Shown: one piece after another, positions 1 to 32,000 of the stretch
Numbering within the stretch: position 1 is the first letter of the stretch
Layout of the letters: each line of letters opens with the position of its first letter
Source: an uncultured bacterium
Lineage (GTDB): Bacteria; Auribacterota; JACPWU01
Length of the DNA stretch: 32,000 nt
Direction of reading: 5' to 3'
Assembly (NCBI GenBank): GCA_964640155.1
Contig: CAZXEQ010000005.1
Coordinates: forward strand, 150,001-182,000
Made by a program: the position numbers and the translations under genes
Notes under the pieces: model-generated
Database searches by the model: none
Told to the model about the DNA's origin: nothing
Seen by the model: the letters and a program-made list of their open reading frames with translations, nothing else

Positions 1-575
1 TTTTACAAAATCTAATCTATCTCGATCATCCATGGCCACACTATTGCCTAAAATAAAAGACATCATCCCCAAATCTTGTCCATGTCCAAAAATTAGTAAT
101 TTCTGTCCCTGATGCCGAGCTTCAAGTTGCTCATAAACATGTTCTGATCGTCTTAAGGCTTCAATTCCAGATTCAGAAACACCAGGAGCCTCCACTCCAA
201 AGTCTTCACCAGAATTAAAACGCTCATATAACTCTGGATTTGTCTGACCGCATTCTTCTTTAGTCTTACCACTCCAGTCTCCCCATGCCATTTCTTTTAA
301 ATTCGGTTCTATGTGAATGGGAAGTTCTACGCCTACCCTTTCTCTGACCAAATCCTGAAAAACTTGTGCTGTTGCATACGCACAATTTAAAGGACTGGAG
401 TAAATAATAGGCAAGCGGCCCGCACGAATATCTTTTTCATATTTGAAGTATAAATTCTCTGCAATTTGTTTGGCCTGCTGTTGACCTACATCATTTAGAG
501 AAATATCCACTCCCCCTGGATAACGATTCTCTATATTCCAATCTGTCTGACCATGAGGAATCAAAGTATAACTAT
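1..575 (-). other. Histidine phosphatase (phosphoglycerate-mutase-like) domain of giant B, truncated by the window edge
   Basis: Translation YTLIPHGQTDWN...ISLNDVGQQQAKQIA...IIYSSPLNCAYATAQ...LKEMAWGDWSG...APGVSES...LLIFGHGQ follows the RHGxTxWN ... SSPLxRAxxTA ... ExxxGxWEG ... GES ... SHG layout of the histidine phosphatase superfamily. Confidence 0.7.
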
Positions 576-3500
576 TATTGGCCTTAAATCCAAAATTAGC
601 TCCGGGCCTTAATCCCCCTGTATTAGGATCAAAAATAAAACGTTTATTTAGTCGAATTTGATCTAAAAACTCACCCGCCTCTATAATACCTTCAAGGTCT
701 AAAACAAATTTTCCAAAATCTATGATTTCTCTAATCAATATTTTGGCATCCTCTTTTGCTAAATCAGACTCTAGTTTTCTGATCTTATCTGCTGTCTGTT
801 TGTCGAGAGGCAGAAACTCATGAACCATTTCATGTGAAAAACCTGTAAAGAAAAGGGCTTGGCGATGGAGAGGATCAGAAATATTTAAAAGTCCAAGCAA
901 ATTGCAATAAACTTTGGCAGGTTTTTTGGATTCTTCAGAATCTTTATCGGATGAACCCCGATCTCTTTCGTGATTTCCAAAAAGGGTTTTATATCTTTTG
1001 TCTTTAACATCAGAGCCAAATGCAAGTTCTATTGGACCATTGAGATCTTTTCTACCTTTTAACTTCTCTCGATCTCGAATTGTCTTACTGAGTTTTTTAT
1101 AAAACTCCTCTCGAGTAGAGACTGGAGACTGGGAATCGGTAACAGTCAATCCCATCATCCTTTCAAACGCCTGAACCTTTGAATCACTCCCATCTGGGAG
1201 TTGAACCTCTCCATTTGTCATTGTGAATGTGATAGAACTCCCATCCAAAGCTTCATGGATCGCTTGCTCTTCTTTTTTTAAATCAGAAACTTTCAAACCC
1301 TCTCTGACTTCTGCACTGAAATTAAAAACTTCCGTATTGGACAAAGCATTCTCAGCTGCGGACGGCAAATCTCTATCCTCCGCTTTATGAATATAGATTT
1401 GGGCCAACCATGCTCGATGCAATTTTAAAAGCAGTCTTCCAATATTCCACTTTAATTCCGTTCCTTGCTCCCTAATAGAAGGGAGTATCGTCTTATTATA
1501 TTCCCATCCTAAAACTTCGCTTAAAGCAACTTTGAAATCATCATAGTGTTGAATAACCTCTTCCATCGCATCAGCAAATTTAGCCTGATCTTCAACCTCT
1601 AATTCCCAAAGTAATCCTTTCAAGTCTGTAATCATTCTCGCTAACTGCTTATAAAACTCAGCGAGTTCAGGATTTTCTCGAGCTACTCTTTTATAAAGAT
1701 ACGGCCGATCATTTCTTTTTTTTGTATTCACTTGAGGATCTCTCTTTTGAGGAGCTTTCTGTTGAGCCTCACGTGAAAGTAATGTCAATTCATCACGAAT
1801 GTTTCTCAAACGTTGTTTAAGTTCTACTCCTTTTTTAAAATCTTGTGATTTTTCCAATTGATCAATTTCTAAAGAAAGCTGTTGGAATTCTACATATAAA
1901 TCCTCAGCTTTTTTCACCTCTTCAGCCGCCCACGGTTCTCCTTTCATTCCCAGAGGAGGATATTTTAAAAGAGGGTCAAACATCTTCTCGACATGATTTC
2001 TAAATTTTTCTAATGCCAATATTTTTCTAAATACAGGATCTGCAATCAAACACGCATCATGCATTGCATTTGAAAAAGAAATACTATCCAAGCTTTGACT
2101 CATTTCTTCAGAGTTAACTTCCACCCATAAAACACCAGAACGGTAATCCATCTTAGCTCTTAAGGCATGAACTTTAGGGTTAATTCGAAATTGAATTTTT
2201 GGCAAACGATACTTCAAATTAGCTAATATTTTTCGTCTTACATAATTTTTACGATCTGAAAGCCCGTCCTTGCGCGAAGGATCTAGGAGCAAATCAAAAG
2301 CATTTACGAGTTTTTGTTTTAGTCGGTCAGTAGCTTCCCCTTCTTCAAATCCTTCAAGGGTCACATTTTCTTTCATTCTTAATTTACGAGCAATTTTCCA
2401 AAATCGTTCAATCGTTCTTCTCTCTCCTTTACGAAACAAATGATATCCTCTAACACCATCGGCCTTTTCATGATCCATCAAGGCTAACAGCGTATCTTGA
2501 TGCTTCTTACCTGCCTTCAATGCCCATTCAGAGAGGAAAACAGTGGGAATACCTTCAAATTCTTTAGATTTTTGCTGTTTACCTGCGTGTCCTAAAACAA
2601 GAGTAGCATCAAATACATTTGTATCATTTCCCCCTCTTATAGGGATCACATATCGATACCCTTTGCTGTCTTTGCCTCGTGTTTGATCAAGAAGTTCCAA
2701 ATAAGATTTAGTTTTTACTAAATTTTGATCCCGATCTTCTCGAACTACTAACTGGTCGGTCCAATAGTCAATGGCAGCATCTCGTTCTACATCACCCTGG
2801 ATATTTTTTGCAATCTCTTCAATAATTTCTTTGACCGAAAGATTTTGAAAACCCTTTTTATGCCACTGATTTAGATTTGTATCACTGACCGCTAATACAT
2901 GCCCCTGTTCAAAACTTTGTTTCAATGCAGTATGAATATACTCTTCTTCATCCAATCCTCTCACTGCAACATCTTTGGAATTTAGCTCTATACCGACTTC
3001 TCTCAAAAAATCTTTCATCATCTCTTGTTTTTCAGGTTTAAGACAATATTCAATGGAATAAGAGTGTTTCCTCAATTCATCTTTCAAAAGAACAGATTGT
3101 TGAATCATTTCTAAAGCTTTTGTACGATCGATCAAAATCAAAAAATAAAAAGTAAAACTAGGAAGTCCAAAGATATCTGACGCACACAACGTATTTAAAT
3201 ACTGCAAAAAGCTTTCTCGTTTATTTTCATCCTCATACATACCCACTAAAGCTTTAGCAATCTTTTTCCCAATCATGGCCTGAATCAACACACGATCCGG
3301 CATCAGATCTTCTCTATTTTCTCCCACATTAAAATGTTCATCCAAAAGAGCTGAAGCTTCTTCAAGCTCTGTACGATTCAAAAGCATTTCAGTTGCTTCA
3401 TCCAACGCTTGATCTCCCGTCTCTGGGAACATATGCCGTGTTGTTGTAGAAAGACCGTAACCCACTTCTATTAAACCATCAGGTTCCAATTTCTGCGCCA

Positions 3501-6186
3501 TCCTTGCAAGAACAGCTGGCATTTCTTTAGAAGGGAAAGCAACATGTCGAAGTGAAATAAAATCAAATTTTTCTTCTTGAGCCACTCGATCAACATCTTT
3601 ATCGCTCGTTACATCCATAGAATCAAAACGAAAATGAATTCCTTCTCCCTCAAAAATATCTTTTCTAATCCAGAAAAACCCATAGCGATCTTTATTAAAA
3701 AATTTGCTAGCTCTTTCTAAAGTCTCTGATTCACTAAAATCTGATGCACGTTCTGGTTCTGGAAGTACATGGGATGCAGCATACGGTCCACCTTCACGGG
3801 CAACAGCAACTAACTCCGAACGTAAATCTGTGATAACAATTTCTACATGAGGATGAATACCAGTTCTAGCTGAAAAAGCTGCGTCAGAAAAAACCCCAAC
3901 ATCATAACCTTCTGCACCATTGCTAGCTCCTACAATCAAACATTTAATAGGACCTCTGGGGTGTGTGCGGATCTCAGATTCAACGATTCTTCTAAGATAT
4001 TTTCCATCACGCCCAAAATAAGTTTTCTGACGCACGAGTGCTTTTTTGTAAATAGAAATGTAGACTGTTAAATCTTTCGCAAAAGCTTCTGAAACTTCTC
4101 TTGCTTCCTCTCCATAAACATCCCCACGATATTGATAATCTGATTCTAATCCCTCTAAAAACTCTCCTGCTAGAGCATCTCCATTTCTTTGGGCAACAAT
4201 TAAACGATGTATATATCTTTGAATTCTTAATGGAATAAAATTAAATCCATCGGAAAATCTCCAACGCACAAAAGCCTCCGCCCCTGCAACAGCTTCTGGA
4301 TGTGAGACCGTACAACCCTCCATCCAAGGCACCACAGCTTGGCCTGTTTTAGGTTTTACTTCTTCCATTGCTTCATGAATCAATAAAGAGAGCAAAAATT
4401 CTACCCTGTCATGAAAAAGATTTTCCCCTATAGCTTCGTTATAATCATGAATCGTTTCGTAATCCTCTTGATTCACAATAATATGTAAAATACCGTTCTC
4501 AACATAGCGTCTGGCTTGAACATCCTTCACATCCTTCGAACGATAAAATTTTATTCTTCCTTCAGCCAAAGCTCTTTGAATACGCTTAAGGGCTTCTTCA
4601 TATTTTGAATGTTGAGACAGACCAGGTGGGGTTCGATCACGAGACAATTGATCCAATTCTTTTCGCTTTAAAATTTCTTCTATTGCTGCCTGTATTTCCG
4701 TCTCTTTCTCTATCGGTTCTGCTTGAGATAAATCAATTTCATCAGATACAGTACAATGTCCTTCTACAGGAGAACCCACATATTTTGCTGCTCCTGAAAT
4801 TGATCGTTCCGATTCTTTTGCTCGTGCGACCAACGAATCAGATGTTCTTTGAATCGCAGAAATACTGCGAGAGGGATCTTGCATATTAGAGATAAGAAGT
4901 TCTTTATATTGTTCCACCCAATAATCATTAAATCCTGCTTTTCTTAATCTTTCTAAAATCCTACTTAAGAGTTGATTTCTCTGATTATAATCTCCCATTC
5001 TCTTCAATACTTCATCCAAAACTTCATGCCTTTCTTCCTCTGAGTTAAAACTTAAATAAGGGTAAACTAGTTTGAAATATTCTTTAATTTCATCTACATC
5101 TCCTCCATCAAACACTGCTAACTCTTTTAGCGCTTTTTCAAATCTATCCTCCTTAGTTTCGATCTTTGAAAGATCTATCAAACTAACTCTTCCAGAACCA
5201 TCCACATGAAATAAAAGATGTTTCGGTTTAACATCTATAAGGCTTGTCATCAACATGAGCATTGCTAATTCTATTTTTTGTTCTCTCGTCATCATTTCAC
5301 ATGGATTACTGCTTGTTTCAGATTCCTGATATTCTGTAACCATATAAACTTCAGGTACTATCCCCCACCAAAGATCTCTCATTTGATATGTGACAGCAGG
5401 GGGAGATTGAATAACCGAAAGACCTAATTTCTCCATTACAATTCTGACGAAAATTTCATTATAAAGAGCGTCGAACCCCTTCTCCATTCCGGAAAGAAAG
5501 CCTGTATCAGAATCTCGCTTCACAACATACTTCTTCCCATTAATTTCAACAACTCTCGCATCCCCAACGGTTCCTCCTAGTCGTTCACCATTTAAAGTAT
5601 GAGGGAACACCCCGTCAAAAAGCACTCTCACTTGATCCTCATTTAAAATGGCATTGTGGAGCTTTGACACTACAACTTCTTTAGTTTTAGCAAAATAATC
5701 TCTAACCATTTGAGTTAATACAGAGTCTTTGCCAAAAGCTTTTTCCATCGAGGTTATCCAAAGTTGAACTTGAGCAGGATTTGAGCCATCTGCTTCTGGA
5801 AAATTAATAAAAAGAGATAACAACCGAAAGAGAGCATTTTGCTCTCTTTCATCGAGCTCTGACCAAATCTTCGAAAGCCAAGATTCAAAAATATCTCGCG
5901 GAGATAGTCCTTTCCTAAGACCCTCTCTAAACTCACGAATCATGATATCTTCAAGAACAGAACGCTTATCTGCTGCAATATCTGACCATCTGTCTCCTGT
6001 GACAAGAGGAGTCTGTAAGGTTTCTTTAGATACTTGCGGATCAAATATTATCTGATCAATTGAAGAGTCTGCAAAAGCGTTTTTGAGGTCAATTCCCGAA
6101 AAGTCGAAAAAGAAGGTTAAAGAAAGACATATGGACAATGCCTTCGTCATAAAAGGTTTTAAACTATATTGAAATAACATCCCCAT
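1..6186 (-). CDS. Giant multidomain protein B, N-terminal 2062 codons; the C-terminus lies beyond the left edge and the ORF is absent from the supplied track
   Basis: Hand translation of the minus frame in phase with ATG 6186-6184 gives MGMLFQYSLKPFMTKALSICLSLTFFFDFSGIDLKNAFADSS... and I met no stop down to position 1. In-frame TGA TGA TAA at 6240-6232 close the frame upstream. Phase was re-checked at KCLIVGAS (about 3940), DVKPK (about 5230), HEMVH (834-820) and PHG (558-550), all in register. If there were an internal stop, the complete ORF from 6186 to that stop should appear in the track, and it does not. Alternative starts are 6180 and 6150. Confidence 0.85.
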   Translation of the reverse strand, partial: MGMLFQYSLKPFMTKALSICLSLTFFFDFSGIDLKNAFADSSIDQIIFDPQVSKETLQTPLVTGDRWSDIAADKRSVLEDIMIREFREGLRKGLSPRDIFESWLSKIWSELDEREQNALFRLLSLFINFPEADGSNPAQVQLWITSMEKAFGKDSVLTQMVRDYFAKTKEVVVSKLHNAILNEDQVRVLFDGVFPHTLNGERLGGTVGDARVVEINGKKYVVKRDSDTGFLSGMEKGFDALYNEIFVRIVMEKLGLSVIQSPPAVTYQMRDLWWGIVPEVYMVTEYQESETSSNPCEMMTREQKIELAMLMLMTSLIDVKPKHLLFHVDGSGRVSLIDLSKIETKEDRFEKALKELAVFDGGDVDEIKEYFKLVYPYLSFNSEEERHEVLDEVLKRMGDYNQRNQLLSRILERLRKAGFNDYWVEQYKELLISNMQDPSRSISAIQRTSDSLVARAKESERSISGAAKYVGSPVEGHCTVSDEIDLSQAEPIEKETEIQAAIEEILKRKELDQLSRDRTPPGLSQHSKYEEALKRIQRALAEGRIKFYRSKDVKDVQARRYVENGILHIIVNQEDYETIHDYNEAIGENLFHDRVEFLLSLLIHEAMEEVKPKTGQAVVPWMEGCTVSHPEAVAGAEAFVRWRFSDGFNFIPLRIQRYIHRLIVAQRNGDALAGEFLEGLESDYQYRGDVYGEEAREVSEAFAKDLTVYISIYKKALVRQKTYFGRDGKYLRRIVESEIRTHPRGPIKCLIVGASNGAEGYDVGVFSDAAFSARTGIHPHVEIVITDLRSELVAVAREGGPYAASHVLPEPERASDFSESETLERASKFFNKDRYGFFWIRKDIFEGEGIHFRFDSMDVTSDKDVDRVAQEEKFDFISLRHVAFPSKEMPAVLARMAQKLEPDGLIEVGYGLSTTTRHMFPETGDQALDEATEMLLNRTELEEASALLDEHFNVGENREDLMPDRVLIQAMIGKKIAKALVGMYEDENKRESFLQYLNTLCASDIFGLPSFTFYFLILIDRTKALEMIQQSVLLKDELRKHSYSIEYCLKPEKQEMMKDFLREVGIELNSKDVAVRGLDEEEYIHTALKQSFEQGHVLAVSDTNLNQWHKKGFQNLSVKEIIEEIAKNIQGDVERDAAIDYWTDQLVVREDRDQNLVKTKSYLELLDQTRGKDSKGYRYVIPIRGGNDTNVFDATLVLGHAGKQQKSKEFEGIPTVFLSEWALKAGKKHQDTLLALMDHEKADGVRGYHLFRKGERRTIERFWKIARKLRMKENVTLEGFEEGEATDRLKQKLVNAFDLLLDPSRKDGLSDRKNYVRRKILANLKYRLPKIQFRINPKVHALRAKMDYRSGVLWVEVNSEEMSQSLDSISFSNAMHDACLIADPVFRKILALEKFRNHVEKMFDPLLKYPPLGMKGEPWAAEEVKKAEDLYVEFQQLSLEIDQLEKSQDFKKGVELKQRLRNIRDELTLLSREAQQKAPQKRDPQVNTKKRNDRPYLYKRVARENPELAEFYKQLARMITDLKGLLWELEVEDQAKFADAMEEVIQHYDDFKVALSEVLGWEYNKTILPSIREQGTELKWNIGRLLLKLHRAWLAQIYIHKAEDRDLPSAAENALSNTEVFNFSAEVREGLKVSDLKKEEQAIHEALDGSSITFTMTNGEVQLPDGSDSKVQAFERMMGLTVTDSQSPVSTREEFYKKLSKTIRDREKLKGRKDLNGPIELAFGSDVKDKRYKTLFGNHERDRGSSDKDSEESKKPAKVYCNLLGLLNISDPLHRQALFFTGFSHEMVHEFLPLDKQTADKIRKLESDLAKEDAKILIREIIDFGKFVLDLEGIIEAGEFLDQIRLNKRFIFDPNTGGLRPGANFGFKANNSYTLIPHGQTDWNIENRYPGGVDISLNDVGQQQAKQIAENLYFKYEKDIRAGRLPIIYSSPLNCAYATAQVFQDLVRERVGVELPIHIEPNLKEMAWGDWSGKTKEECGQTNPELYERFNSGEDFGVEAPGVSESGIEALRRSEHVYEQLEARHQGQKLLIFGHGQDLGMMSFILGNSVAMDDRDRLDFVK
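665..1430 (-). other. HExxH (zincin-like) module of giant B, paralogous to 10960-11640 in giant A
   Basis: FNFSAEVREGL...ITFTMTNGEV...FGSDVKDKRYKTLFGNHERD...FFTGFSHEMVHEFL...LAKEDAKILIREI aligns by eye with the giant A segment HFSAEVNEGL...VTFTVTNGDI...FGSDRTQKEYRTLFGNHKTD...FLTGMSHETVHEFL...LAEEDARILQREI. The HEMVH codons are at 834-820. Confidence 0.5.
3465..3990 (-). other. CheR-type SAM-dependent methyltransferase-like domain of giant B
   Basis: IKCLIVGASNGAEGYDVGV (compare CheR iWSAGCSTGEEPYSiA), EIVITDLRSELVAVAREGGPY (compare i.ATDId...L..Ar.G.Y), and KFDFISLRHVAF...VLARMAQKLEPDGLIEVGYG (compare fDlIfCRNVlIYF...vl..l...L.pgG.L.lG). Confidence 0.55.
5150..5600 (-). other. Atypical protein-kinase-like domain of giant B
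   Basis: LGGTVGDARVVEINGKKYVVKRD looks like a Gly-rich loop plus the beta3 lysine. ALYNEIFVRIV is helix-C-like, VYMVTEYQE hinge-like, SLIDVKPKHLLF a DxKPxN-type catalytic loop with His in place of Asn, and RVSLIDLSK a DFG position reading DLS. Confidence 0.4.
5675..6000 (-). other. N-proximal module shared by both giants (giant B copy), function unknown
   Basis: REFREGLRKGLSPRDIFESWLSKIWSELDEREQNALFRLLSLFINFPEADGSNPAQVQLWITSMEKAFGKDSVLTQMVRDYFAK aligns without gaps to the giant A segment DDLREGLAQGRSPRQIFEGWLSRIWDGLDEQEHTSLRTLLSQFVNFPEANASNPTQAKIWLDMMNKAFGEDSVLTQIVREYFES. About 50 of 84 positions are identical by hand count. Confidence 0.8.
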
Positions 6187-6219
6187 TACCTTCTTCCTAA
6201 GTCCGCTTACAGCGTATAT

Positions 6220-6248
6220 ATTATACCACTTTTATCATCACTTTTCAA
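6220..6248 (-). promoter_or_regulatory. Candidate sigma-70 promoter for giant B (TTGAAA, 17-nt spacer, TATAAT with an extended TG)
   Basis: The minus strand reads TTGAAA (6248-6243), agtgatgataaaagtgg (17 nt), TATAAT (6225-6220), with TGG immediately 5' of the -10. It sits about 35 nt upstream of ATG 6186. The SD-like GAAGG lies 3-9 nt before the candidate ATGs. Chance matches are common in AT-rich DNA. Confidence 0.45.
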
Positions 6249-6330
6249 ATTTTAAATAATTTCTTAATTGCAAGCAAGAGAATGTATTGGGAATACAAAA
6301 ATAGGATTAAATATAGAAGAAGATATCCTT

Positions 6331-9300
6331 TTAAGCTGCAACCTCAATTTCAGCCGGAGATCTTAAAACATGAGGAACACTTCGTGGCAACCCTGAAACT
6401 GCCTTTAAAACAGATTTTTTTAGAGAAATAGCGGTATCCGAAAGAGGTTGATACGCTTCCAACGCACGATCAAGCGCTTCTACAGAAGCTTGTGCAGAAT
6501 CTAATTTTGACTTCAAAATCTCTGCTAATTGATGTGTTAACTCTTTTAAGAATTGATCCCTTACTGATCCATCTAATATTGCATCTGCCCGTCTGGCACC
6601 TTCGGCTATCGCTCCTGCAAAATCGAAAGAATTACTAGCTTGTCGATAAGAAGCTAAAAAAGTTCTTATTTCTCCTTTTAGGACTTCTAAAGAATTCATC
6701 GTACTGAGAGGCGTCGCTTCGGTCCCTTTTTCCTCTTTCAACTCAATCTGATTCAATTCAAGTTCTACACTCTGTCCACTTTCATCTTTTAACCAATGGA
6801 TTTGAAGTGTCCCCTTCTCTTCATCGTAACTTAACAACTCTGGGAATGTATTCGATAACTCATTGAGATCTCTTAAGTAATATTCATAATCTCCTTCCGT
6901 TAAGTCTATTCTCCTTTGCCCTCTTAACACTCTCTCATGCAGTTCTTCTAACAAATGATAATCCTCTTCACCCATCGCCTTCTCTTTACTTCGATCCTTC
7001 ATTATTAAATATTCTTCTATTTTCTTAATTTTCTCTGCATCCAATGTCAGTTTTGTTCCTTGCCCTATTTCTCTTTCAAGGCTCTTGTTTTTCTTTTGTA
7101 TGGCTTCTCTTAAGGTGTAGTAACCTTGTACTACTTGCTCTGTCCAAAATCTATCAAAGGCCTCCAACCCTTCTGCCTCTAGTTTTTCTTTGAACAGTAT
7201 GGCAAAAGAGCGATCCTGTTCTGTATGTTTTGCATTTCTTAATGTCTTCATATCTCCAACTAAGATGAGTCGATCTGAAGCTCGACTCAATGCTACATTC
7301 AGCCGATTGATATTGGCGACAAAGCCTACTTTGCTTGGATCTGGGTTACTTCTTACAAAGCTATAGATGACTACTGCATTTTCTCTTCCCTGATAACTAT
7401 CTACAGTCCCTATCTGGCTTTCTACGATAGCTTGTGCCTCATCTTTCTTCATCTTTCTTTCTCTTATTAGATAGTCTCTTATCTTTTCTCTGATTAACTC
7501 TACCTGCGATTGATACGCTGATAATATACTTATCTGTTCTGATCTATACCCAGATGCCAATGCCCTTTTGTATTCTTCTAAGCATTTGTTTGCTTCTTCT
7601 GTGTTTTGATAGCTTGTACCCCTAGCTTCTTCATTGCCTGAAGCTTTTTTCATAGGGACATCAACTCTTCTTACTGTGTCTTCTTCCATCATTCGCCATG
7701 TCTTAGGAACCATCATTTTGTTATAAATGAGTCGGCCTATCATGACGGATATCACAGGATGGCTTCTATAGTTACGAGCTAAAAATGTTTGGGCTTGTCC
7801 TTTGTTCCATCTTCTTGCCATTCCACTTTCTTGGATCATTGCCCGATAGATGTCTGTTTGACCTTTCATCGCAGCTTCATCTATAAATGGCTCTAATTGT
7901 AAATGGTCTCCTGCTAAGATGATCTTTTCTTTTGCTTTTGCTCCTGCCAATACCGTATCTATCTCATTGACGGTTCCTGCTTCATCTATAATGACAACAT
8001 CATATTCTTGATCTGCCGTCTCCGGCACTCGATACATGGAGTCTGTTGTGACTCCAACCACATATCCCTTTCCATTTGTTTTCCTTTTCTTAAACTCTTT
8101 CATTCCTTCCCCGTTATAGCCATCCTCCCTTGCTTGATTCCACACTTGATATTTTCTTAGAGACTCTATAACTCGATCATCTCCTCTTCCTTCTTCTCCT
8201 CGACTATACGCTCTTAAAATAGGAACTTTATTTCGATCCAGTCGCTCTAATACATTGTCTACGGCCAGATTTGTCCGACTGACCACCAATACTCTCTTGC
8301 CTTGCTTCACCAGCTGCTGTGCTATTTCTACCACTGTTGCGGTCTTCCCACTTCCTGCTCCTCCTTGTATCAACGCTACTTTTGTCCTAGGATGTAAGGC
8401 CATCCTTACAGCATTGGATTGGAATGGATCTTGAGCTACTCTTTCATCTTGGATCTGAATCTTACTTTTCTCTTCGCTGATTTCTTCTTTATTGATTGTC
8501 TCTGGTTTTTCAAGCCCTAAAAGTTCTCTCGTTGCTCGACTTAAACCATTTCTTACTTGAGCTTTTCCTCCGATTGCTCTGAGCCTCTCTATTTGTATAG
8601 CTCTTAAGGCAACATTATTGCCTAGCTCTTTTTCTTTGCCTTCAACCATCTCTTTTAATTCTCCCAAAACGTTTTTCAGCTCCTTACTCTGAGAGCTATG
8701 TCCTACCTCTCCGGGTAGTTTTAATGATGTTACTTTGGCTTCTCTGTTATATTCTTCATCTAAGATGCTTATTTCTGGTAATGCAATTCCAAATCGCCGG
8801 GCTGCTTCTAGAAGCGATTCATTGGGCTCTTTTCCATTGAGCAATGCCCAGCTGTCATTCGTTAGTCCTCTCCTTACTCTATCCTCTAACGCTTGCTCTA
8901 CCAGACCGGGACTGGAATACCCTTGCGCTTTCATCACCCGCAACATCCAATGTCCATGTATAGGTGATTTAATCAGTCGACTTAATCGCGTGATCATTCT
9001 ACCTTCAACTTCTCTTTGCGTCTCATAAATCCATTCTTCTAATGTTTCATCATAAAATCGTCTCACTTTTACTTTGCCAGGTTTTCCAATTCCTGTGGAA
9101 AGTATAGCTTTCTTGTGCTTTCCATCATCAGTCCAAGAAAAATGGACTCTACCACCGCTATACACTTCTGTTTTCCATTCCAAAGGTTCAAACCCATCCT
9201 TATTTTGGACATCTTGAGCCTTAAGCTGTTGAATAACTTTTTCTTTATTGCGATCAAATATTTCAAGCTTCCAGAAATTTTTGCCCTCTTCCTTAACCAA

Positions 9301-18891: not shown

Positions 18892-18965
<74 letters not shown>

Positions 18966-19062: not shown

Positions 19063-19134
19063 GCCAGGGTAGCTCAGAGGTAGAGCGGGGCTCTCATAAG
19101 GCCTAGGTCGTGGGTTCGATTCCCCCCTCTGGCA
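19063..19134 (+). tRNA. tRNA with anticodon CAT (elongator Met, or Ile2 that needs lysidine; undecided)
   Basis: GCCAGGGTAGCTCAGAGGTAGAGCGGGGCTCTCATAAGGCCTAGGTCGTGGGTTCGATTCCCCCCTCTGGCA folds as a cloverleaf. The acceptor is GCCAGGG/CTCTGGC, the D stem GCTC/GAGC, the anticodon loop CTCATAA and the T loop TTCGATT. There is one T:C mismatch in the T stem. Confidence 0.8.
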
Positions 19135-30796: not shown

Positions 30797-30839
30797 GGAT
30801 GGATGGAGTAAAGTTTTAAGATCGTAAAGGGGAAAAACC

Positions 30840-32000
30840 GTGAAAGTAACCACTGAAAAGAAATCTTATGTTTTAGGCCTGCGTTGTCGAGAATGTAATA
30901 AAGAATATACTCAGCAACCACTTCATGTGTGTGAAGATTGCTTTGGTCCTTTAGAAGCAGTTTATGATTATCCAGCCATTAAAAAAGTTCTTTCAAGAGA
31001 AAAAATTCTTTCTCGACGTCCTACGATGTGGCGTTATCGCGAATTGCTTCCTATTGATGGAGATCCAACAGTCGGACTCGAAGTTGGTTTCACCCCCTTC
31101 TTTCGCTCAAAACGCTTAGCCGAAGCACTTGGACTTCAAGAACTTTATATTAAAAATGATGCAGTTAATCACCCTACTCTTTCTTTTAAAGATCGTGTTG
31201 TAGCTGTAGCACTTTCTAAAGCAAAAGAATTTGGATTTAAAACCGTGGCTTGTGCTTCCACAGGAAATTTAGCCAATTCCGTCGCCGCCAATGCATCTCA
31301 GGCAGGGCTTGAAAGCTATATTTTTATTCCTGCTGATTTAGAGCAAGGCAAAGTTCTAGGAACCTTAGTGTTTGGAACAAATCTCATTGGCATTCATGGA
31401 ACATATGATGAAGTCAATCGCCTTTGCAGTGAGATTGCAGATAAATATGGTTGGGCCTTTGTAAATATTAATATCCGTCCCTTTTATGGAGAAGGCTCTA
31501 AGACCTATACCTTCGAAATTATGGAACAAATGGGCTGGCGAGTTCCACAAAATATCGTGGTGCCTATGGCAGGAGGCTCTTTGATCACAAAAGTTCGAAA
31601 AGCGATGAAAGAGTTTTACGATTTGGGTTTGGTCGAAGATCATTCAACCAAAATTCATGGAGCTCAAGCCGAAGGATGCGGTCCTATAGTTCATGCGGTT
31701 CTTGCGGGTCATGAATTTTTTAAGCCTGAAAAGCCCAATACTATTGCAAAATCTTTGGCCATTGGAAATCCCGCTGATGGTTTTTATGCCATTAAGACAA
31801 TTCGAGAAACGGGAGGTTGGGCCAATGGAGCAACTGACGAAGAAATCGTAGACGCGATAAAACTCTTAGCCTCTACCGAAGGGATCTTTACAGAAACCGC
31901 CGGAGGTGTTACGCTTGCTGTCTTAAAAAAATTGATTGCATCAGGGCATATCCCTAAAGATGAATCTGTTGTTTTATGTATCACGGGGAATGGTCTCAAA
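30840..32000 (+). CDS. thrC: Threonine-synthase-family PLP enzyme with an N-terminal zinc ribbon (GTG start; 387 codons in the window, 3' end beyond the right edge; absent from the ORF track)
   Basis: GTG 30840 follows an in-frame TAA and the SD-like AAGGGG. The translation VKVTTEKKSYVLGLRCRECNKEY...HVCEDCFGPL has CxxC...CxxC. It also contains NHPTLSFKDR (the PLP lysine), ACASTGNLANS and VVPMAGGSLIT. The frame is open to position 32000. Confidence 0.85.
   Translation, partial: MKVTTEKKSYVLGLRCRECNKEYTQQPLHVCEDCFGPLEAVYDYPAIKKVLSREKILSRRPTMWRYRELLPIDGDPTVGLEVGFTPFFRSKRLAEALGLQELYIKNDAVNHPTLSFKDRVVAVALSKAKEFGFKTVACASTGNLANSVAANASQAGLESYIFIPADLEQGKVLGTLVFGTNLIGIHGTYDEVNRLCSEIADKYGWAFVNINIRPFYGEGSKTYTFEIMEQMGWRVPQNIVVPMAGGSLITKVRKAMKEFYDLGLVEDHSTKIHGAQAEGCGPIVHAVLAGHEFFKPEKPNTIAKSLAIGNPADGFYAIKTIRETGGWANGATDEEIVDAIKLLASTEGIFTETAGGVTLAVLKKLIASGHIPKDESVVLCITGNGLK

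Follow-up and report, generated by a model that had tools for sequence, protein, structure and literature searches.

Location and reading frame of giant B

The window analysed here is a 32,000-nt stretch of DNA from an uncultured bacterium (GTDB lineage Bacteria; Auribacterota; JACPWU01), namely positions 150,001 to 182,000 of the forward strand of contig CAZXEQ010000005.1 in GenBank assembly GCA_964640155.1. Two very long genes stand there in tandem on the minus strand: giant A (6331..15825), which encodes 3,164 amino acids (aa) with a hydrophobic N-terminus, and downstream of it giant B, of which window positions 1..6186 hold codons 1-2062 of 2855. When the reverse complement of 1-6186 is translated from the ATG at 6186, 2,062 codons are read down to position 1 with 0 stops; the remaining five frames of the same region carry 99-201 stops each and stay open for 99 codons at most. 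At the base composition of this stretch, the probability of 2,062 stop-free codons is ~1e-71. The list of open reading frames (ORFs) supplied with the DNA shows exactly two short ORFs for positions 1-6330 (4605-4889, plus strand, 94 aa; 5754-5936, minus strand, 60 aa), and by its own description it omits ORFs that run off either end of the window, which explains the 6.2-kb gap in the track. The initial annotation had claimed that the minus frame is open from ATG 6186 to position 1 and that the track drops ORFs without a stop inside the window; translation bears out the former, and the latter matches the stated design of the list. Its warning that users of the track would mistake the region for non-coding DNA was justified, since a real gene is present, with a His_Phos_1 domain (1.7e-30), an identical product on an independent Logan contig and a constrained ortholog. 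The right-edge gene that it named as omitted in the same way is indeed unlisted, with 391 codons (30828-32000, plus strand) open to the edge. Lists that need both ends of an ORF inside the window thus label the longest genes non-coding, here 6.2 kb and the right-edge ORF.

The open frame from 6186 to 1 is the 5' 72% of a real gene of 2,855 codons. From ATG 6186, giant B continues for 793 codons beyond the left window edge, measures 8.6 kb and ends at position 11638 of Logan contig L001 (SRR8893623). This contig is identical to the window over all 9,256 nt in common, and the full 2,855-codon frame is intact on it. A convergent mgtE gene ends immediately next to the stop codon, with 0 intergenic bases between them (L001 11638/11639), and no terminator-like site was found between giants A and B. 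The product recorded in the protein database from the same contig, P0001, has 2,843 aa and begins at ATG 6150. In the giant B frame, the upstream stop is TAA 6234-6232, the frame is open from 6231, and the first start codon to follow is ATG 6186. A Shine-Dalgarno sequence read from the DNA, AGGAAGAAGG (6189..6198, minus strand), is suitably placed for ATG 6186 or ATG 6180 and is identical in the ortholog described below; no Shine-Dalgarno motif stands ahead of ATG 6150, the start of the Logan gene call. Both this Shine-Dalgarno site and the conservation of the upstream codons favour ATG 6186 or ATG 6180 over 6150, which adds 10-12 residues. Further upstream, a promoter-like site (6220..6248, minus strand) consists of TTGAAA, a 17-nt spacer and TATAAT, agrees with the consensus at 11/12 positions, has TG before the -10 hexamer and is likewise conserved in the Auribacterota ortholog.

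The comparison of third-position G+C content (GC3) and codon usage with giant A, which the initial annotation had proposed, also agrees with a gene of this genome: GC3 is 0.266 in giant B, 0.292 in giant A and 0.264-0.337 in ten neighbouring genes, and in codon usage giant B has a correlation of 0.94 with giant A and of 0.90 with the ten neighbours pooled. In a word-indexed homology search, the whole giant B protein matched itself only. Two more such searches, one for the shared modules joined end to end and one for the kinase-like region, came back empty; they missed even P0001, of which the queries were largely or wholly exact parts, and these two negatives therefore carry no weight. Exact-peptide scans with whole giant B found no relatives in GTDB genomes and JGI metagenomes.

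Domain organization of giant B

Numbered from ATG 6186, giant B contains in order a leader, module M1, kinase-like motifs, a CheR-like domain, ~700 unannotated aa, module M2, a histidine phosphatase, ~450 unannotated aa, a weak class-I methyltransferase signal and a tail. The N-terminal hydrophobic leader, MTKALSICLSLTFFFDFSGIDLKNAFAD (aa 13-40; 6067..6150, minus strand), is flanked by lysines on its N-terminal side and by acidic residues on its C-terminal side. The leader region (aa 1-50) is 82% identical to that of the ortholog, and its 'GIDL..FA' motif also occurs in P0003, one of the related giants described below; it may be a signal peptide or an anchor. Module M1 (aa 54-165; 5692..6027, minus strand) is 56% identical to aa 524-635 of giant A (13921-14256, minus strand) and 30% identical to a segment of another relative, P0008; the giant A copy also matches P0003. 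No Pfam match was found for M1.

The region of aa 200-345 (5152..5589, minus strand) carries kinase-like motifs in the expected order, namely GGTVGDA (204), YVVK (220), the E in ALYNEIF, DVKPKH (318) and IDLS (337), and these are kept in the ortholog. In DVKPKH, His replaces the Asn of D-x-K-x-x-N, and IDLS reads DFS in the ortholog. This region had no match in Pfam, in the PDB phmmer search or in the PDB profile search; its hhalign comparison with the true Pkinase domain of a related giant aligned 15 columns with a probability of 1.5%, and a single-sequence AlphaFold2 (AF2) model reached a predicted local distance difference test score (pLDDT) of 39. Its identity as a protein kinase is thus an unproven, motif-level lead. 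The CheR-like S-adenosylmethionine (SAM)-dependent methyltransferase domain (aa 729-910; 3457..4002, minus strand) matches PF01739 marginally, at 29.0-33.2 bits against a cut-off of 27, and the match is also present in the ortholog. CheR_N (PF03705) was not found directly upstream of the SAM-binding domain; its sole match (E=0.081) covers 21 residues ~300 aa away.

The histidine phosphatase of branch 1 (aa 1875-2037; 76..564, minus strand) matches PF00300 His_Phos_1 at E=1.7e-30 and 106.6 bits against a cut-off of 21.7. An alignment with PhoE (1h2e) over 166 residues shows that the nucleophile H1878, E1965 and H2035 are kept and that both conserved phosphate-binding arginines are replaced, by P1877 (RHG to PHG; LIPHGQ against LTRHGE in PhoE) and C1935 (GRA to NCA; SPLNCAY against STSGRAL). 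Both arginines are present in the canonical GpmA encoded on contig L008. Unlike PhoE, CobC and dPGM, which share PF00300, the giant B domain is embedded in a giant protein, and it is absent from the ortholog. Towards the C-terminus, a UbiE-type class-I methyltransferase signal (aa ~2546-2711) is weak (E=0.005), and the tail (aa 2737-2855) is common to giant A. PDB sequence searches with aa 931-1620 and aa 2087-2855 returned nothing. A phage origin was considered and rejected, as the PHROGs matches are limited to the phosphatase in giant B and to the helicase and one weak short match in giant A.

Module M2 and the family that it defines

Module M2 (aa 1619-1848; 643..1332, minus strand) is the domain that defines the family. 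It contains the invariant SHExVHE and is 40% identical to aa 1423-1630 of giant A (10936-11559, minus strand), the similarity including SHE[MT]VHEF. In an alignment of 12 M2 copies, the residues G, N, D, N, R and G and the motif H-E-x-x-H-E are invariant, and H167, E168, H171 and E172 of the module are the same in 12/12 copies. The AF2 model built from this alignment (pLDDT 84; predicted template modelling score 0.86) consists of three strands followed by a long helix with HExxHE and a helix with a conserved E-D pair. The HExxH motif of giant B, HEMVH (aa 1785-1789; 820..834, minus strand), is on the predicted helix 154-173 of the model. No Pfam family matched M2, peptidase families included, and a Foldseek search of the model against PDB gave nothing significant. 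The top two matches were HExxH hydrolases, YbeY and a predicted zincin-like protease (E 3.5-4.7; target-normalised TM-score 0.40-0.46). In this non-significant fold match, M2 resembles YbeY (1xm5) and Acel_2062 (3e11) in having HExxH on a long helix after a small beta-sheet; unlike them, it has an extra N-terminal alpha/beta part of ~100 aa with conserved motifs of its own. The best lead, which is not an established fact, is that M2 may be a zincin-type metallopeptidase, given the HExxH motif on the predicted helix. Several degenerate zincin-like modules had been suspected by eye in giant B, for instance at HEAME (aa 604); hhalign of 36 windows of the alignment of giant B and its ortholog against the M2 profile left one M2 only, and these candidates were rejected.

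The family defined by M2, a previously undescribed module, is very rare, and most of its members are giants. When 1.84 billion (1.84e9) representative proteins were searched exhaustively by HMMER with a profile of M1+M2, 10 matched, giants A and B among them. The eight others have 4,604, 3,267, 205, 4,138, 5,912, 853, 4,199 and 1,570 aa, so that 6/10 family clusters exceed 3,000 aa. Each protein has one to three copies of M2, and the accompanying domains vary: one set comprises RelA/SpoT and HEAT repeats, another LOG/SLOG with several methyltransferases, and a further one cNMP-binding, TIM-barrel (AP_endonuc_2) and Upf1-like helicase domains. A Pkinase domain occurs in a further giant that adjoins P0003. 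A scan of GTDB species representatives with the M2 profile gave two loci, P0004 in a groundwater 'Chlamydiae bacterium' metagenome-assembled genome (MAG) and the contig with the giant B ortholog, and the same scan of JGI metagenomes gave none.

Giants of the M2 family are located among ordinary chromosomal genes. Assembly GCA_042567415.1 carries at least three of them (P0003, P0006 and the Pkinase-bearing giant) together with the 853-aa P0008. On contig L003 (1-23811), the Pkinase-bearing giant (at least 2,139 aa) is followed by yajC, secDF and the giant P0003, so that Sec-translocon accessory genes stand between two family members. In contig L002 (1-19802), giant P0004 is immediately preceded, on its own strand, by a complete chemotaxis-type operon that encodes a methyl-accepting chemotaxis protein, CheA, response regulators, CheB, CheW, CheR and a histidine kinase; giant B has a CheR-like domain. 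The extreme C-termini of giants from different genomes are also alike (EIEVAA, EVETAA, EIEAAA, VEVMA, LEVMA), as seen at the end of giant A (6334-6354), at the end of giant B (L001 ~11618-11635), in P0006, in the upstream giant of L003 and in the ORF upstream of the giant B ortholog. These similar termini could serve as a recognition signal, e.g., for a secretion system or a protease.

Ortholog of giant B and cassette turnover

The closest sampled relative of giant B lies in a Candidatus Auribacterota MAG, on contig L004, where an ortholog of the giant A tail (71% identity) is followed by the giant B ortholog; the tandem A-B arrangement is therefore conserved. On this basis, the bacterium of the window is probably related to that phylum. 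The ortholog is open for >3,640 codons, to the contig end, and is 53% identical to giant B over aa 1-1831 and 57% over aa 2087-2837. In the aligned parts, synonymous divergence (dS) is ~0.6-1.5, and the ratio of nonsynonymous to synonymous divergence (dN/dS) is 0.19-0.33, which indicates that giant B is under purifying selection, the values being those of this gene alone.

That the ortholog is intact and constrained bears directly on whether giant B is functional. In principle, the open frame could stem from chance, from a chimeric assembly or from a pseudogene in decay, a view to which the ~70% of the protein without a recognisable domain, the phosphatase without its two conserved arginines and the recovery of the exact protein from one contig only would lend themselves. 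Against this stand the probability of ~1e-71 for a chance open frame, the intact 2,855-codon frame, the ortholog intact over >3,640 codons with dN/dS of 0.19-0.33 throughout, the conserved promoter-like site and Shine-Dalgarno sequence, and codon usage that matches the host. A non-functional frame is scarcely credible, and the ortholog refutes it for practical purposes.

The two orthologs differ in cargo. The L004 protein contains 818 extra residues, among them a second M2. Just upstream of M2, giant B resembles the flank of the first M2 of the ortholog (M2a; 56-64% identity), whereas the body of its M2 is 76-88% identical to the second (M2b) and 24-56% identical to the first. The switch of identity between M2a and M2b occurs exactly at the start of M2, at the conserved 'FSAEV.EGL'. 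Directly after M2, giant B has the phosphatase and the ortholog has ~230 unrelated residues. This pattern of identities shows directly that whole 'M2 + cargo' units have come, gone and been replaced between orthologs, and the turnover would most simply be explained by recombination between M2 copies.

At the other end of the gene, a block conserved at the nucleotide level (6060..6269, minus strand; blastn match to L004 949-1157) covers the promoter, the 5' untranslated region and the first ~43 codons. Its nucleotide identity to L004 is 92-95% (92% by blastn; ~94% in codons 1-40), against ~65% in the rest of the gene, and its dS is 0.23 against ~1.0-1.5 elsewhere. The block may reflect constraint on the leader or targeting signal, or recent gene conversion. 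An RNA element was considered and rejected, as the block has no Rfam match and folds no more stably than shuffled sequence (z=+0.54). When folded to minimum energy, the block has its Shine-Dalgarno sequence paired to CCUUCUU of codons ~24-27.

Giant A, the tandem partner

As judged from the alignments of M1, M2 and the C-terminal tail, giant A is a partial paralog of giant B with three segments in common. The giant A tail (6334-6681, minus strand) is 36% identical to that of giant B and shares 'SFDFAGAIAEGA..ADA' with it; giant A terminates in EIEVAA and giant B in EVETAA. A further module of giant A, aa 13-494 (14344-15789, minus strand), is homologous to the N-terminal regions of P0003 (32%) and P0004 (26%), is absent from giant B and has no Pfam annotation. 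Between M2 and the tail, giant A contains an Upf1/IGHMBP2-type superfamily 1 (SF1) helicase (7225-8427, minus strand), recognised from profile matches of aa 2438-2878 to PADLOC MkoA (1.4e-57) and MkoC (3.5e-20), to TIGR00376 (7.8e-48) and to Pfam AAA_11 and AAA_12. The NCBIfam PLuB helicase-like model also matches (6e-26), but at 90 bits against a cut-off of 999. A link between helicase giants and an adjoining phosphatase gene, suspected on contig L008, was dropped because that gene encodes the canonical GpmA.

The helicase raises the question of whether giants A and B work together in anti-phage defence or conflict, in which giant A would be an Upf1/MkoA-like helicase sensor and giant B would supply effector or modifier enzymes. 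Such a role would suit the matches to MkoA, MkoC and the PLuB model (6e-26), the fast cargo turnover, and the SLOG/LOG, RelA/SpoT-like and cNMP-binding domains of the relatives, which recur in nucleotide-based conflict systems. It is nevertheless very unlikely. Giant A resembles MkoA of the Mokosh system and the Upf1-IGHMBP2 helicases over the generic SF1 helicase core only; unlike Mokosh, it has no phospholipase D (PLD) partner, no PLD nuclease or other Mokosh partner having been found, and its helicase sits inside a 3,164-aa protein with M1, M2 and the tail. In addition, the NCBIfam match is far under its cut-off (90 against 999 bits), giant B is without any PADLOC match, and the neighbours are housekeeping genes with no defence island. 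N-terminal export-type leaders are also not a known feature of cytoplasmic defence proteins.

Other features of the window

Elsewhere in the window, a SAM riboswitch (RF00162; 30631-30754, plus strand; 77 bits) lies directly upstream of the right-edge ORF (30828-32000, plus strand), which runs off the edge and has the N-terminal Cys motif CRECNKEY...CEDCFGPLE. From this motif only, we take the ORF to be threonine-synthase-like, as a candidate label. Two tRNA genes (18892-18965 and 19063-19134, plus strand) are found between tilS and a glycosyltransferase gene.

Proposed role of giant B

The N-termini of giants A and B, P0003 and P0004 run, when read by eye, from basic residues through a hydrophobic stretch to acidic residues, and this charge pattern predicts an N-in/C-out orientation with export of the protein bulk. 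In P0004, the N-terminus has the look of a classical signal peptide, short and cleavable. Because the cargo enzymes depend on ATP or SAM, they would be of use to an exported protein only within another cell. A reading that we favour tentatively is that giant B may be an exported or cell-surface multi-enzyme effector with M2 as its processing metallopeptidase. In this mechanism, the N-terminal leader would take giant B across the cytoplasmic membrane, the ATP- and SAM-dependent cassettes would act inside another cell, and M2, as a zincin-type metallopeptidase, would process the chain, cutting the protein itself at cassette borders or else acting on a target. In concept, this would make giant B a small-scale relative of the multi-enzyme giants of Omnitrophota and other PVC-related bacteria (the Planctomycetes, Verrucomicrobia and Chlamydiae group) and of MARTX-type multi-effector toxins. 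A study of Omnitrophota and related lineages reported giant mosaics in which methyltransferase, HEAT and LOG domains are combined with signal peptides at the N-terminus and with candidate peptidases for self-cleavage, and read them as predatory surface weapons (10.1101/2023.11.21.568195). A toxin-like giant protein has also been reported in an Auribacterota-affiliated clade (PMC12057145).

Several observations weigh against export and an effector function. The hydrophobic segment of giant B is below the transmembrane threshold, and the distance from its core to the AFA|D site is ~14 aa, which is more than is usual for signal peptidase I. The surroundings of the A-B pair showed no cleavage sites, secretion-system genes or toxin domains, and its neighbours are ordinary chromosomal genes. 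The phosphatase may be inactive, judging from the replacement of both phosphate-binding arginines, and ~70% of giant B has no match in Pfam, NCBIfam, PADLOC, PHROGs or PDB. The set of kinase, phosphatase, CheR-like, RelA/SpoT, cNMP-binding and LOG/SLOG domains is equally typical of intracellular signalling. Similar Omnitrophota giants have been described as membrane-anchored with their bulk in the cytoplasm (10.64898/2026.06.07.730766).

In another explanation, giants A and B are membrane-tethered cytoplasmic multi-enzyme scaffolds. The hydrophobic segment would then be an anchor only, the cassettes would act on the cell's own proteins or nucleotides as a signalling or regulatory hub, and M2 would have a structural or regulatory function or would be a peptidase for proteins of the same cell. 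ATP and SAM are not expected outside a cytoplasm, which would suit such a location. The signalling-type domains of the family (CheR-like, RelA/SpoT, cNMP-binding, LOG/SLOG and Pkinase), the complete che operon that directly precedes P0004 in the same orientation and the lack of secretion-system genes flanking the A-B pair agree with it, as does the placement of 'signal-transduction/regulatory' giants at the inner membrane with cytoplasmic bulk (10.64898/2026.06.07.730766). However, the charge pattern seen by eye in A, B, P0003 and P0004 predicts the opposite orientation, with the bulk exported, and the N-terminus of P0004 is like a classical cleavable signal peptide. Furthermore, dN/dS of 0.2-0.33 (measured on this gene alone) and the cassette turnover between close relatives seem fast for core signalling proteins. 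A cytoplasmic scaffold is, on this evidence, the main rival reading and somewhat less likely than the exported effector.

The exported-effector reading can be carried one step further. The M2 giants might be 'effector polyproteins', in which M2, as a zincin-like module, would mark and cut the borders of exchangeable cassettes, one exported precursor would deliver several ATP- or SAM-dependent enzymes into another cell, and recombination between M2 copies would bring in new cargo. This extended proposal is unlikely to hold in full.

Comparison with known giant proteins and significance

Giants A and B represent a class of giant mosaic enzyme proteins that is small, arranged in tandem and defined by M2, an undescribed domain, and that bears a clear record of cassette exchange. 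They resemble the archaeovorin-type or multi-enzyme-cluster giants in having one long chain of divergent enzyme domains and unannotated stretches (10.1101/2023.11.21.568195; 10.64898/2026.06.07.730766). Methyltransferase, HEAT and LOG ('Lysine_decarbox') domains are found in both the archaeovorin-type and the M2-family sets, HEAT and LOG being in the relatives of giant B. An N-terminal hydrophobic or signal region, candidate self-processing peptidases and an origin in uncultivated PVC-related lineages are further likenesses. The differences are also clear. Archaeovorin-type proteins exceed 30,000 aa (genes >90 kb) and occur in Omnitrophota, whereas giant B has 2,855 aa, a gene of 8.6 kb and its nearest relative in Auribacterota. 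They carry many transmembrane helices, whereas giant B has one N-terminal hydrophobic segment. No SecA-like, C39/S8 peptidase, glycosyl-hydrolase, glycosyl-transferase or NUDIX domains were found in giant B, so that of the archaeovorin-type domain menu it has methyltransferases and a putative M2 peptidase only. Since the M1+M2 profile recovered nothing longer than 5,912 aa, M2 is apparently not present in archaeovorin-type proteins.

MARTX toxins are also giant chains, with exchangeable effector cassettes that vary between strains by recombination and with a built-in releasing protease; giant B resembles them in these respects, its releasing protease being putative. Unlike MARTX, giant B showed neither RTX or glycine-rich repeats nor a cysteine protease domain (Pfam search of the whole protein and ten overlapping segments, E up to 1). 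It has an N-terminal leader in place of a C-terminal type I secretion signal, and its putative protease is of the HExxH type.

Giant mosaic enzyme proteins are known yet unexplained in uncultivated PVC-related bacteria, and this locus provides a small version of ~3,000 aa. It offers a ~200-aa module that folds confidently in silico, a paralogous tandem partner, and cargo gain and loss that can be followed at residue resolution at a module border. Two questions thereby become testable, namely whether giants are processed into pieces and how their cargo is swapped. If the effector-polyprotein proposal were true, it would constitute a new principle of delivery and processing in free-living PVC-related bacteria, and the locus would offer a compact, tractable system in which to study the unexplained giants of Omnitrophota and its relatives.

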